The notes beneath the pieces were generated by a model, which was not told the origin of the DNA, ran no database searches, and worked only from the letters and a program-made list of their open reading frames with translations. From positions 340,752,001 to 340,816,000 of the forward strand of contig OZ024741.1 of assembly GCA_964016885.1 (NCBI GenBank): a DNA stretch of 64,000 bases. The letters run 5' to 3'. The stretch comes from Eledone cirrhosa. Lineage: Eukaryota. Below are positions 2,168 to 57,500 of this stretch, in pieces. Made by a program: the position numbers and the translations under genes. Positions within the stretch are counted from its first letter, which is position 1. The number at the start of each line of letters is the position of its first letter.

Positions 2168-2615
2168 AATTAGAAGGGATATTCAATTTGTTGGTAATTC
2201 AACAAATATAAATGTTTATAACTGATTCAGAGCACTCGACAGTTTTCTGGAGTATAATATACAATGATATTAAATAAATGGAAACTATATTTATGAAACC
2301 ATATTTATTCTATTATATATATTTCAAGGGTACCAAAGTTTTGGTACGCTATCATCAGATAAAATACGAAGTGTGTTTTATGAATTTTGACATAGCCAAG
2401 GAGAATATACCTTAACGGTTCAAGTTTTCCTTCACTATCCAAGGAAAACTGGAACCGTTAAGGTATATTCTCCTTGGTTATGTCAAAATTTATTAAAAAA
2501 AACACTTCGTATTTTATGATGATAGCGTACCAACATTTTGGTACCCTTGAAATATATATAATAGAATAAATATGGTTTTATAAATATAGTTTCCATTTAT
2601 TTAATATCATTGTAT
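2168..2615. mobile_element. Fold-back of PLE pseudo-LTR, family B (~170-bp arms, centre ~2433-2440)
   Basis: 2261-2432 is the reverse complement of 2441-2613. Homologous to PLE ends at 31303-31700 and 39770-40170. Flanked by (TA)n. Confidence 0.85.
2308..2364 (-). ncRNA. Type I hammerhead ribozyme (family B)
   Basis: Minus strand: TTTTAT-CTGATGA-TAGCGTACCAAAACTTTGGTACCCTT-GAAA-TATATA-TA-ATAGAA. The + arm copy (~2512-2566) has a 2-nt core deletion. Confidence 0.85.
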
Positions 2616-2824
2616 ATATATATATATATATGTGTGTGTCTGTGTGTGTGTGTGTGTGTGTGTGTGTGTGTGTGTGTGTGTGTGTGTGTGTGTGTGTGTG
2701 TGTGTGTGTGTATGTGTGTGTGTGTGTGTGTATGTTTATCCCGGGCTCAATGGTTCAATCGGGGGTAACAAGAGTAATTAAAGCACTCAATACATAACAG
2801 AGTATAAATATTTAATATAGAAAT

Positions 2825-2876
2825 GGCTTCTACAGGACTAGAACTGTTTCATTCTGAAGAAATCATCAGGAAAGCC
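2825..2876 (-). ncRNA. Type I hammerhead ribozyme (family C), in an island at ~2736-2896 that folds back at the ribozyme
   Basis: Minus strand: GGCTTTC-CTGATGA-TTTCTTCAGAAT-GAAA-CAG(TTCTAGTC)CTG-TA-GAAGCC. A truncated relative lies at ~990-1072. Confidence 0.75.
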
Positions 2877-2916
2877 TGATGATTTCTTCCGAATGATTTC
2901 TTTCATATATATATAC

Positions 2917-3217
2917 ATAAACAAAAAAGGACAAAGACGGTAACGAAAACGAAAGCAACGAGCACATATACGAAAATCGACAATAGAAAAGGAACGAAGA
3001 AACAGAGACAGCAAAGCAAAAAGAAACCACCGCCATCCTCGCCCGCCCCCATCTCTCTCTCTCTCTCTCTCTCTCTCTCTCTCTCTATATATATATATAT
3101 ATATATATATATATATATATATATATATATATATTCTTCGTTCCTATTATATTGTCGATTTGCGTATATGTGCTCGTTGCTTTCGTTTTCGTTACCGTCT
3201 TTGTCCTTTTTGGTTTA
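2917..3217. repeat. ~85-bp inverted repeat around a (CT)n(AT)n spacer
   Basis: AAAAAGGACAAAGACGGTAACGAAAACGAAAGCAACGAGCACATATACG...GGAACGAAGA (2925-3000) is the reverse complement of 3135-3211. Confidence 0.85.
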
Positions 3218-4053
3218 TATATATATATATATATATATATATATATATATATATATATATATATATATATACCATATATATATGGTATATATATATATAT
3301 ATATATATATATATATATATATATATATACCATATATATATATATATATATATACCATATATATATATATATATATATATATATATATATATATATATAT
3401 ATATATATATATACCATATATATATATATATATATATATATATATATATATATATATATATATATATATATACCATATATATATATATATATATATGGTA
3501 TATATATATATATATATATATATATATATACCATATATATATATATATATATATATATATATATATATATATATATATATATATATATATATATCATATA
3601 TATATATATATATATATATATATCATATATATATATATATATATATATTATATATATATATATATATATATCATATATATATATATATATATACCATATA
3701 TATATATATATATAAGAAATATAATTGTTTCTACTTTAGGCACAAGGCCAGCAAATACCCAGTGCATTACTGGTACTTTATTTTATATATATAAGAAATA
3801 TAATCTCTATTAGACACAGCAGGAAATATTTTCTTCTGCAAACAATTTCCAACAGAGAGTTCAGTTCAACGAATGTGTTTTTGTATATTTATGTTGCATT
3901 CAAAGTATTTATAAATAAACATGATTAACTGAAAGACTAGTTCCTGTATTAAATTATTAAATTAAAATTAATATAGTATTTGTAAGTATACATTTTAATA
4001 TGTATTGCAATGTTTGTATTTTCGTGTGTCCAACTATTTTCAATTTAATCACA

Positions 4054-53915: not shown

Positions 53916-55308
53916 TATATATATATATATATATATATATATATATATATATATATATATATATATATATGGGACGGGTAAGTGAGGCGAACTAAGATCT
54001 GGGCCTCAAGGGGCCAACAAGCATTGAGTTAAGCGCCAGCTTAACGTGGCGAGCAAAATAATGTTAATTAACCGAAACTATATGCAAACAGATTGATTGA
54101 CAAGGGCTCTTTACTGTATTCGATAACGAAGTTGCCTTGCTCGCCTTTTCTCTCCCGTTATCAGTATTTTGTAAAATGGTACTTCCAGCCGCCATCCATA
54201 GCGACCAGATTTCAACAGAAATAGAGCTTTATTTATTTATTCAATTAATTTCTCTTTTATCTTCTATATTCATATTCTGACGGATATCATCGTCGTAATT
54301 TCATATTGGTGTTATTTATACACAGTAAACACAAAATAAATATATTTGAGAAAAACAAAGATGTTGATACGGTGGTATGTCCATTATCGATATCAACTCA
54401 TATTGACACATATTTCTTCTTCTTCTTCTTCTTCTTCTTCTTCTTCTTCTTCTTCTTTATATACATACATGTATACGTTTATGTGTATAGAGTTGTGTTG
54501 TAAATTGTTTTGATACGATGTTAGTTAAAATGTATGTTATCACCACAGTTTACAATCACCAATATGGCCTTTTAAATGCTCATAAACTAGGGAATGGAAA
54601 AAGAATTTACAGCTCACACCTATATAGGATTAGTTGGCTTCCTCCTACGGGGTTGTATCTCGGATGTTTCTTGGCTGCTTTAATGATAGGGGTCACAATT
54701 CTATCCTGTCGTTGTTACAACTCATACAATGTTATATCCCATAATAGGTGGGGGGGGGGTAGATTTAATGATAACAGTGCTAATCAGATGATGAAAAGCA
54801 ACGTGAAACGAAGGACCATTCGGTGCAGGTATCGAACACAAGCCCTTATGATCGTGAGTCAAACACTCTAACTACTAGATCATGCGCCTTTTATATATTG
54901 AGATGGATATGTGAGACCTTATTGTATTCACTATTAACAGCCTTACATTGCCCCCACATTCAAGTGATGTAGGTCACCGAGTGAAGAATTGTGCTGTTTG
55001 GTTTGAACAAAACTCCGCCTGTTTCGATGGAAGACACTTTAACACCAAAACACAGATTTTCATTGACTACCTTCTGATGTAATCTGGTGCCATGGGCAAC
55101 AGAGCACCAGGGTAAGAACATCATACAAGACCACACATACATACACACACATACATATATACATACATACATACATACATACATACATACATACATACAT
55201 ACATACATACATACATACATACATGCACACATACATACATATATACATACATACAAACACACACATACACATACATATACACATAGATACATACATACAC
55301 ACATACAT

Positions 55309-56220
55309 ACGACGTGTGTTAGAAAGTTAACAGAACTTAGTGTGCTGTGTGAACTATGGATAGGGTAGGGATTAGTGGGTTACCGTATGGCGTCATACCC
55401 GGGGAGTATATAACTCCAATCTCAGCTCTCTGCAGCCATTGTATGGTTTTTCACGTGCTTTTGTTAACAGTTTCTCAATTTTAGTCCGTCAAGAGATGGG
55501 CACAGAGCTACAAATCTACTTGAAGTTTCTAATTCAGCTGGGAAAAACTTCGTCAGAAGCACTCGGAAAACTGCAGTGTACGGAGATGGGACAATGTCGC
55601 ACACACGGGTATTTCGAGTGGCACAAAAGGTTCAAAATAGGGGTGAGGACTGAGCAAGACTGAGGTCAACGTTGAAGCAGGTGGCGTTCGTTGGCTGGCT
55701 GTTCGAGTGGTTGTAAGTGAGCTAAGCATGAACCCTGACAGCGTTTGGGAGATTATCACCGATCGGTGCTAAGATGGCGCTGAAGCTACTAAACGATGAC
55801 CAGGTGTGTCAGGACATTCTCGAGCGTCTGAAAACGGAATCAGACTTGTCGGGGAGAGTCATCAAAGGTGATGAGTCGTGGATTTTCAAGTACGACTCAG
55901 AAACCAAGGTCCAGAGCCTTCAGTGGATAAGTCTGCAGTCGCGGAGGCCAAAGAAATCAAGATAGTTGAAGTCCAAAGTTAAACTCATGTTGATCGCGTT
56001 TTTCGGTGTGAGGGGCATCCTTCACACAGAGTTCTTGCCACAAAGCCAGACGATCAACCAGCATGTCTACAAACTAATCCTGCGGCGTTTGCTTCGTTCA
56101 GTGTACGAGAAGAGGTGAAAGCTGTGGCAGGACAACTCGTAGCTGCTTTACCTCGACAACGCGCCGGCTCACAACGCCCTGAGCACCCGGCAGTTCTTGG
56201 CCTAGAAGAACATCGCCGGT
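55309..56220 (+). mobile_element. Mariner (IS630-Tc1-mariner) transposase remnant
   Basis: FEWHKRFK, GDESWIFKYDSETKVQSLQW, and manually translated LDNAPAHNALSTRQFLA. TIR-like ACGACGTGTGTTAGAAAG after TA. Contains stops and frameshifts. Confidence 0.88.
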
Positions 56221-56364
56221 TGGTTTTGCCCGTAAAATCTGTCCAGTGATTCTTTCCTGAGACATTCTAACCACATGCCCTTCCTGAACCATCTTTGGTG
56301 TCTCGGGATGCGTAATCTTTTTCTCCATTTTATTATAATTCATGGATAAATTTTAATATATTGT

Positions 56365-56600
56365 ACTAGCTGAATTTCCCGGCGTCGCCAGGGTTACTGC
56401 TGTTCTTATTCAGATTAGTAAACAATAAATATGAAGATATGTTTTTTTCTGCTCATAATTATTTCAAAATATCTATATTTTATTAAAAAAATATCAGAAT
56501 TGTAATAATAGTATTTAGAAATGAAAATCTGTCAATCTTGAAGCACCTTAGAGTAAACAATATTCATTGTGTCATAATTTTTGGGTGTCAAAATGAATAC
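56365..56600 (-). mobile_element. Helitron 3' end
   Basis: Minus strand: CCCTGGCGACGCCGGG hairpin, then AAATTCAG-CTAG|T. The 5' boundary is uncertain. Confidence 0.6.
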
Positions 56601-57242
56601 ACACATACACTCACACACACATACACTCTCACATACACGCACACATCCTCACATACACTCACATACATATACTAAGACACACACACACAGACATACATTC
56701 ACACACACCTGTCTGTCATCACATATGTATCTGCATGTGTAGATGTGTGTGTGTGTTTAATTGTCTGTGTGTGAAGATAATGTGTATGCAACTTACTAAC
56801 GCTATATGTATGTGTGTGTTTAATTCTCTGAGGCCCCACGTTAAAGTAAAAATTATCACTCATACACTCACACACACATACAATCTCACACACCAAAATG
56901 TCAAATCTACCCCTTTTCACGTTATGAAACAAAACATTTCCTCATATTCACCCTTCCATCACAATAGGTCTTTGAAACATAACGATGTAAATTTCACTAT
57001 CTTATTATGTTTTTTTTTTCAATACATATAAAATTTAATAATAATAATAATAATAATTGTTTCTACGTTTGGCACAAGGCTAGCAATTACCCAGTGCATT
57101 ACTGGTACTTTATTTTATCGATCCCGTAAGGATGAAAGGCAAAGTTAACCTCGGCGGGATAGCTTAATATAATGTTGCCTATATGTTCAATGGCAAGGGA
57201 CGTAACTCTATACGTCAAAGCATGGCGTCCGACCCTCTACCG

Positions 57243-57500
57243 AACGAAAGATATAACTTTATAACATCACTATTTATTTCATTATATATATTTCGGGGAG
57301 GCATACATTTTTGCATCCCCGAAATATATATAATGAAATAAATAGTGATGTTATAAAGTTATATCTTTCGCTTATTACTATTATTGTCATAATACTCCAG
57401 ATAAGTATTATTTGTCGAGAGCTTCGTATCTGTTATAAACATAACTCAGTTGATTAAATATCAACGAAGTTTATAAAAATTGAATACATATTTCTACTTT
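57243..57500. mobile_element. Family B-related fold-back, inverted within HHR helix II
   Basis: ~55-bp arms about 57307. The right arm has CCCC-GAAA-TATATA-TA-ATGAAATAAA and a downstream TGTCGAGAGC motif. Confidence 0.7.

Follow-up and report, generated by a model that had tools for sequence, protein, structure and literature searches.

Head-to-head pairs of Penelope-like elements in Eledone cirrhosa mostly join a tailed to a tail-less arm

In L1 twin priming, two target ends prime on the element RNA, which leads to a 5' inversion. Penelope-like elements (PLEs) also form tandem and inverted structures, the origin of which is described as unresolved in two reports (PMC8557442, PMC11167929). 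The head-to-head bias, palindromic junctions, tails on one side only and the targeting of (TA)n have been published before: PMC3846280 names head-to-head as the most frequent arrangement and describes palindromic junctions, with a tail on one of the inverted pseudo-long terminal repeats (pLTRs), and PMC8557442 describes an inverted 5' copy, a tail of 30-40 nt often at one end and a (TA)n bias. For a Poseidon PLE, the available part of an in vitro study reports that both strands are cut and extended, that a dimer is predicted and that two reverse transcriptase (RT) start sites bound the tail (PMC11167929); inverted copies are not dealt with in that part. Here, we analysed inverted PLE pairs in 64,000 nt of the Eledone cirrhosa genome (GCA_964016885.1, contig OZ024741.1, positions 340,752,001 to 340,816,000; the window), a (TA)n-dense stretch of 34% GC in a genome of 3.0 Gb. 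The polarity of the pairs is itself not news; what is added is the coupling of two start sites, the failure of containment of one arm in the other, and twin hairpins.

The window was compared with a random sample of 24 blocks of 50 kb (1.2 Mb), taken at round coordinates on 10 contigs and mapped with 18 references that represent 15 family groups; fragments diverged by more than 15%, TA-like false matches of family F19 and family F0, because its ends are undefinable, were excluded from the block counts. Every mapped family has two 3' end sites that lie 25-173 nt apart and are termed S1 (tail-less) and S2 (tailed). One S1 and one S2 end were combined in 62 of the 68 resolved block pairs (p 8e-13 against 0.5; 34 further block pairs had an unresolved end) and in 30 of 32 resolved pairs of family F53, while unpaired block copies comprised 54 S1 and 58 S2 ends. 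This suggests that the two ends are coordinated, most simply by two enzymes that are set by two hairpins. The sequence-only reading of the window had missed this main regularity, one tailed and one tail-less arm per pair, as well as the earlier publication of the head-to-head polarity (PMC3846280).

That reading had listed 13 inverted sites in the window, and a pair is present at all of them. Since the site at 17295 carries two pairs, there are 14 junctions. The pairs and the features that orient them are the following.

2166..2622, F1a pair: left arm 2166-2432 (minus strand, tailed, S2), right arm 2441 to about 2612 (plus strand, tail-less, S1); 8-nt spacer, arms 96.1% identical
2306..2358, minus strand: minimal hammerhead ribozyme (HHR) motif of the F1a pair, with an 8-bp stem I
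17296..17496, pair of the short family F17: tailed arm (S2) on the left, tail-less arm (S1) on the right, 3-nt junction insert
17535..17694, second F17 pair: left arm tail-less, right arm essentially tail-only; an inversion with almost nothing duplicated between the arms
18346..19249, F38 pair: left S2, right S1; oriented by identity with 38361-39507
19266..21296, F19 pair: left S1, right S2, 628-nt spacer; no HHR detected in this pair, orientation from the endonuclease open reading frame (ORF)
20266..20547, plus strand: endonuclease fragment with CxCX5C linker and IVY/YIG motifs, which orients the F19 right arm
24872..25445, pair of an older F53 relative: left S2, right S1; degenerate HHR in both arms, by eye
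25483..25876, F4 pair, an exception: left arm complete and tailed, with HHR at 25626-25675 (minus strand); right arm of about 80 nt that lacks HHR, 3' end and TA
26776..28312, minus strand: broken Hydra-type ORF (RT and GIY-YIG endonuclease), the long left arm of an extra junction near 28460 outside the earlier list, with right arm 28464-28606 (plus strand, S1)
32825..35329, F32 pair: long left arm (S1) with ORF fragments 34418-35207 (minus strand), short right arm (S2); HHR motifs 32859-32919 (minus strand) and 35169-35232 (plus strand)
35459..36060, F6 pair: left S2, right S1, variant HHR in both arms; zero spacer at 35870, a later short interspersed element (SINE) inside the left arm
38361..39507, F38 pair: left S2, right S1, 173-nt tail; long-loop variant HHR at 38851-38963 (minus strand)
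41596..42924, F41 pair of partial tandems: outer ends S2 (left) and S1 (right), junction at about 42206; HHR 41856-41925 (minus strand); hairpins 41647-41672 (S1, minus strand), 42083-42102 (S2, minus strand) and 42474-42493 (S2, plus strand)
53279..53925, F53 pair (319-nt non-autonomous monomer): left S2, right S1; neither arm inside the other, HHR with TTGATAA core in both arms
57245..57370, old F1-like pair, an exception: the arms meet within HHR stem II, and both ends lie outside (TA)n
62916..63242, F4 pair, an exception: left arm with HHR at 63033-63082 (minus strand); right arm of about 30-40 nt that does not reach a true 3' terminus

All orientable window pairs consist of a minus arm followed by a plus arm. 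The earlier description of HHR-oriented arms at every site was too general in its basis, as the full HHR motif lies in both arms only at 32825, 35458 and 53281; at 2168, 25708, 38362, 41594 and 63168 it was detected in the left arm alone, and the orientation of 17295, 24870 and 57243 was taken from family homology or from inspection by eye. Likewise, both true element termini lie in (TA)n at 11 of 14 junctions but not at 25708, 57243 and 63168, and little or no spacer is seen in eight (0-30 nt), the other six having 55-2233 nt. The arms, which are 89.7-100% identical, mostly share the same 3' region as had been stated, but a tail of 25-173 nt is present on one arm and absent from the other in 11 of 11 complete window pairs, and the pair at 17535-17694 shares almost nothing.

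The identity of the elements was in line with the original proposal of Penelope-like elements. Judged by their motif marks, they are PLEs of the Hydra clade and short derivatives of these. RT and IVY/YVG-type motifs occur in broken ORF pieces in the order RT then GIY-YIG endonuclease, one ORF, and protein neighbours of the ORF fragments carry RVT_1; none of six ORF fragments was above threshold in Pfam, and Rfam at gathering threshold gave no match in the window. According to PMC8557442, the marks of the Hydra clade are a CxCX5C linker, DKT, RWK and the lack of a CCHH motif. The linker precedes the endonuclease in three window fragments (20266, 26776, 34418), and in the fragments inspected, the GIY- and YIG-like motifs have at most one Cys between them, a comparison made without a full alignment. 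DKT, and not DKG, is present in the ORFs of F43 and F1c. Copies with a 5' ORF carry RWR or RWH at the N-terminal RWK position, which differs from the described clade, as do the very high copy number, the tails of 25-173 nt instead of 30-40 nt and the many short non-autonomous derivatives; HHR, (TA)n and the domain order are shared (PMC8557442). The Naiad clade was rejected, since the endonuclease is C-terminal to the RT and HHRs are present. Further PLE traits, namely partial tandems, an inverted 5' copy and an optional tail, are all found, and both ends lie within 20 nt of TA in 54 of 68 block pairs. The hammerhead motif of the pLTR is on the same strand as the ORF, so that head-to-head is correctly defined. 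Its motif matched 178 times in 1.26 Mb compared to 14 times in a shuffled control, with 97 of the 178 matches in one cluster, mostly a single tandem array. Families without an ORF (short F17 copies, F53, F38, F6 and others) were assigned by shared end structure only. Of these, F53 (2,534 exact 35-mer matches in the genome) and F17 (26,091 matches of the tailed end) are non-autonomous; neighbouring F53 monomers diverge as much as random copies (6.6%).

The polarity of the pairs is strongly biased where two arms are directly joined. In the random blocks, opposite-strand neighbours within 60 nt were head-to-head in 77 and tail-to-tail in four cases, compared to 18 and nine at 61-1000 nt and seven and eight at 1-5 kb, and a SINE control within 1 kb was symmetric (8 versus 10). 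Genome-wide, F17 showed 12,477 head-to-head junctions versus 33 tail-to-tail pairs, a count restricted to gaps of at most 30 nt that under-counts tail-to-tail pairs across longer (TA)n; F53 loci gave 40 versus two. The two orientations are thus far from equally common, but the head-to-head polarity is not invariant as had been claimed. (TA)n lies between the partners in 33 of 33 tail-to-tail F17 pairs, and tail-to-tail neighbours across (TA)n also occur in the window between its two F17 pairs (17438-17603) and at 28464-28811. These neighbours look like separate insertions in one tract. With 102 head-to-head pairs in 1.2 Mb, or about 40% of mapped insertions, the view of a routine insertion mode stood.

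It could be argued that the head-to-head pairs, too, are two separate insertions in the same (TA)n, or products of later recombination or conversion. PLE ends do cluster in shared (TA)n (of 1,029 runs of at least 10 TA units in blocks L031-L150, 215 have a 3' end of a PLE mapped with the 18 references no further than 60 nt away), tail-to-tail neighbours exist, and both arms of one pair, L188, are tailed and differ in their subfamily marks. However, the 5' ends of the pairs are joined directly with no (TA)n between them, the F17 polarity is extreme, and neither the S1/S2 coupling nor a single duplication around both arms is predicted by this explanation, which we regard as very unlikely.

An artefact of fold-back libraries or of the assembly would likewise generate palindromes, and might be suspected from the identical arms of one window pair (17373-17499). 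Furthermore, no record spans the window's own junction at 42206 in the other samples, which share less than half of the window's words. The support from independent reads that had been called for exists at the level of families but does not bridge that junction: restriction-site associated DNA sequencing (RAD-seq) raw reads of three other samples from one study contain both F17 end sites joined to TA as well as strand-changing F17 joints at the 5' side, and F41 positions from the left and the right arm are joined to each other in contigs and reads of other samples. The pairs are not a library artefact, because the arms differ (by 1-10% in most pairs) and the joints recur in independent short reads. 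Together with the family-specific asymmetric ends and the symmetric SINE control, this leaves an artefactual origin with next to no credibility. An inherited palindromic miniature inverted-repeat element or DNA transposon was ruled out by the varying junctions, the asymmetric ends and the attached RT ORF.

In most families, both end sites are associated with a hairpin of the form RCTC-loop-GAGY. It follows S1 in 10 of 16 families compared to 2% of background windows, and S2 in seven of nine usable read-throughs, a tally that does not include the F1a read-through. Its outer pair occurs in A-U and G-C versions. For F43 (309 matches) and F1c (41 of 42 matches), the hairpin after S2 was predicted beforehand and then found; in both families, the two sites and their hairpins lie upstream of the first ATG. 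In addition to the F41 hairpins given above, the window contains the following examples.

2234..2253, minus strand: ACTC-loop-GAGT hairpin directly 3' of S1, F1a
17344..17367, minus strand: ACTC-loop-GAGT hairpin 3' of S1, F17
35269..35289, plus strand: GCTC-loop-GAGC hairpin 3' of S1, F32
39745..39762, minus strand: GCTC-loop-GAGC hairpin 3' of S2 in a read-through copy of F1b

We consider it probable that the pairs consist of two separately primed arms, made by double target-primed reverse transcription at a staggered cut with subsequent joining of the cDNA ends. A single insertion, with both ends of a staggered (TA)n cut priming, is likely. The GIY-YIG endonuclease would nick both strands about 13-14 nt apart and leave 3' overhangs, of which one would prime at S2 and the other at S1, each via 1-8 nt of UA pairing. 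Each start would be positioned by its own hairpin, probably by means of a complex of two enzymes. Both cDNAs would then stop, be trimmed and be joined end to end, either by host end joining or by a template jump, and would each be filled in. Two primed 3' overhangs would yield a minus arm followed by a plus arm, with the 3' ends outward and inside one duplication. The first of two mechanisms that had been offered from the sequence, priming from both ends of a break, fits these observations. No double-priming proposal for PLEs was found in the titles and abstract openings searched; supplements and the Penelope reviews of 2005-2006, which may describe tail coupling, were outside this search.

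The second mechanism offered, snap-back of the cDNA, fits poorly. Here, a cDNA primed at S2 would fold at its 3' end, copy itself to S1 and be joined there, which would account for shared variants and for a tail on one arm. It requires that the second arm lies inside the first. Neither arm was inside the other in seven of 30 F53 pairs, including the window pair at 53281, even when shifts by whole monomers were allowed. Among 65 pairs of linear families, the tail-less (S1) arm reached further 5' in 17 and the arms shared nothing (tail-only) in seven, so that containment fails in up to 24; the tailed (S2) arm reached further in 10, 18 were ties and 13 remained open. The many pairs in which neither arm is contained argue against a simple snap-back, as do zero-spacer centres without a loop and, in a by-eye comparison, trimming at the F17 stop that runs both ways. 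On the other hand, the 18 ties are compatible with snap-back, as are some junctions in natural hairpins with 12-30 nt of homology and the F53 pairs, in which the 5' reach differs by at most 50 nt in 11 of 30 pairs versus 5.3 expected (p 0.007). As a general explanation snap-back is improbable, but it may explain a minority of pairs. A common template end or a common pause would also account for the near-equal 5' reach in many F17 and F53 pairs. Tailed arms that end exactly at S1, as from collision on one RNA, were not evidently in excess in the linear families.

The two arms of F17 both end in a narrow zone (window 17423-17437) that lies about 60 nt above S1. The sequence of this zone resembles what we take to be an initiator element, and the short palindromic F17 may form a transcribed, SINE-like lineage of its own.

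The junctions bear on a further alternative, in which antisense or read-through palindromic RNA primes itself and the resulting hairpin copy is cut at two sites by the endonuclease and integrated. Self-priming is the model of PMC3846280 and endonuclease resolution that of PMC8557442, so that this is the published account of head-to-head palindromes, and some junction forms do recur at unrelated loci. However, the junctions vary widely and trimming affects either side, loci with like junctions (L020 versus L021) carry the tail on opposite sides, and the two ends match the RT start sites determined in vitro for another clade (PMC11167929). This origin therefore appears to us quite improbable, slightly more so than snap-back. 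Of 48 closed junctions, 20 contained inserts, many of which copy nearby sequence, 11 were blunt, 12 showed 1-2 nt and five at least 3 nt of microhomology, a spectrum that would be expected of end joining. While the published description is qualitative, the coupling is counted here (62/68) and containment fails (PMC3846280).

The arms of a pair come from one source lineage. Both arms belonged to the same subfamily in 25 of 25 F17 pairs, where subfamilies differ in age, and variants are shared between the arms of F53 pairs at 2.8% of sites, compared to 0.6% between loci. We lean slightly against a copying of both arms from one and the same RNA molecule. A more specific version of double priming is offered only tentatively and is rather doubtful as a whole: a Hydra RT dimer would dock on two tandem RCTC-loop-GAGY hairpins of one RNA and reverse-transcribe it twice from a cut staggered by 13-14 nt, the trailing enzyme displacing the first cDNA and cDNA joining replacing second-strand synthesis. 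The PLE tail would then be the distance between the docking hairpins, and some 250,000 palindromes, a candidate source of double-stranded RNA (dsRNA), would have been written in this way.

Target duplications of 13, 14 and 14 nt frame whole pairs at L024, L189 and L190. For L024, paralogous empty sites with a short (AT)5-6 were found, the one clean case among the matches listed in an empty-site search with 137 insertions. Telomerase-like de novo addition of TA was set aside, as the L024 target already had (AT)5-6. Published duplications in Adineta elements measure 8-10 nt, compared to 13-14 nt here.

Several observations weigh against double priming. About 60% of mapped insertions are single copies (143 unpaired among 348 mapped fragments); six of the 68 resolved pairs are S1/S1 or S2/S2, and L188 has its two unlike tailed arms. 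No hairpin follows S1 in six of 16 families (F53, F3, F6, F6c, F19 and, in the copy used, F43). The hairpin often differs from the predicted fold of minimum energy and was first spotted by eye in the same data. In the Poseidon study, the choice of start site was the same on both strands (PMC11167929). Some calls of 5' reach fall in natural hairpins and are hence ambiguous. An in-register test for a single RNA template was positive at eight of 13 loci (p 0.13), and a CpG test for gene conversion gave p 0.45; conversion may have contributed. A systematic screen for duplications yielded 4/109 versus 3.7 +/- 1.8 in shuffles, which is uninformative because the flanks are nearly pure TA, but no duplication was present at the informative sites L182, L183/L184 and L195 either. 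Finally, the reading is drawn from old insertions, without an observed intermediate.

Compared to described systems, the pairs resemble the inverted pLTRs of Penelope/Poseidon, Neptune and Naiad in head-to-head order, palindromic junction, tail at one end and short duplication (PMC3846280, PMC8557442). With the Poseidon element PAc they share two internal RT starts that define the tail, cutting and extension of both strands and a predicted dimer; HHR cleavage is not needed there, and the arms here run through the cleavage site (PMC11167929). According to the same source, the PAc starts lie 111-118 nt inside the ORF at one AC-rich stem loop without target homology, whereas the sites described here are upstream of the first ATG (F43, F1c), have a hairpin each and a UA match of 1-8 nt. 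The contrast to L1 twin priming, which had been drawn from inversion without duplication in L1, was right for most pairs, as these duplicate the 3' region, but too sharp, since seven of the 65 linear pairs are inverted without duplication. A further difference is that the second priming site is fixed here and not opportunistic.

The tens of thousands of pairs per family provide counts that discriminate between models, and the two hairpins and two start sites named here can be mutated in an existing type of assay. Scaled up to 3.0 Gb, the 102 pairs in 1.2 Mb correspond to about 250,000 short-loop palindromes. These would be a candidate source for two features reported for octopus in PMC5625713, hyper-editing and an unusually high potential for near-perfect dsRNA. 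Each pair would also lengthen (TA)n by one duplication per insertion.

Among the tandem derivatives, a 420-bp HHR-bearing unit fills a 50-kb block on one strand (L126-L130, contig C28, 110.00-110.05 Mb) and is a retrozyme-like satellite. Like animal non-LTR (long terminal repeat) retrozymes, as described in 10.64898/2026.07.22.740005, this array and F53 are HHR-bearing tandem non-autonomous PLE derivatives, and unlike these, F53 also forms head-to-head pairs with S1/S2 ends. Block L131 contains a tandem of two different families at about 2615-3150, where the 5' part of an F4 copy directly adjoins the tailed end of an F24 copy; this suggests template jumps.

Candidate ribozymes with variant HHR cores were observed at the motif level: TTGA.AA in F53, F6, F6c and F17, which we take to be a U3-A8 compensation, CCGATGA in F38, where the loop measures about 90 nt, and CAGAAGA in F43. 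Variant cores in the window are located as follows.

53443-53480, variant HHR core
53745-53782, variant HHR core
35801-35830, variant HHR core
35911-35940, variant HHR core
38851-38963, variant HHR core (the long-loop form noted above)
36934-37041, variant HHR core

Both F38 pairs of the window (18346-19249, 38361-39507) contain SINE-like sequence inside both arms, so F38 may mobilise a SINE fragment. A further short palindrome with (TA)n on both sides lies at 43222-43290. Outside the PLEs, an 11-kb array of a 54-bp unit (5343-16332, about 204 copies, 94% match) has long open frames and may encode a mucin-like repeat. A broken long interspersed element with endonuclease and RT fragments, presumably of RTE type, occupies 21923-24592 on the minus strand, and a decayed transposase, recognised by eye and assumed by us to be mariner-like, lies at 55300-56300.

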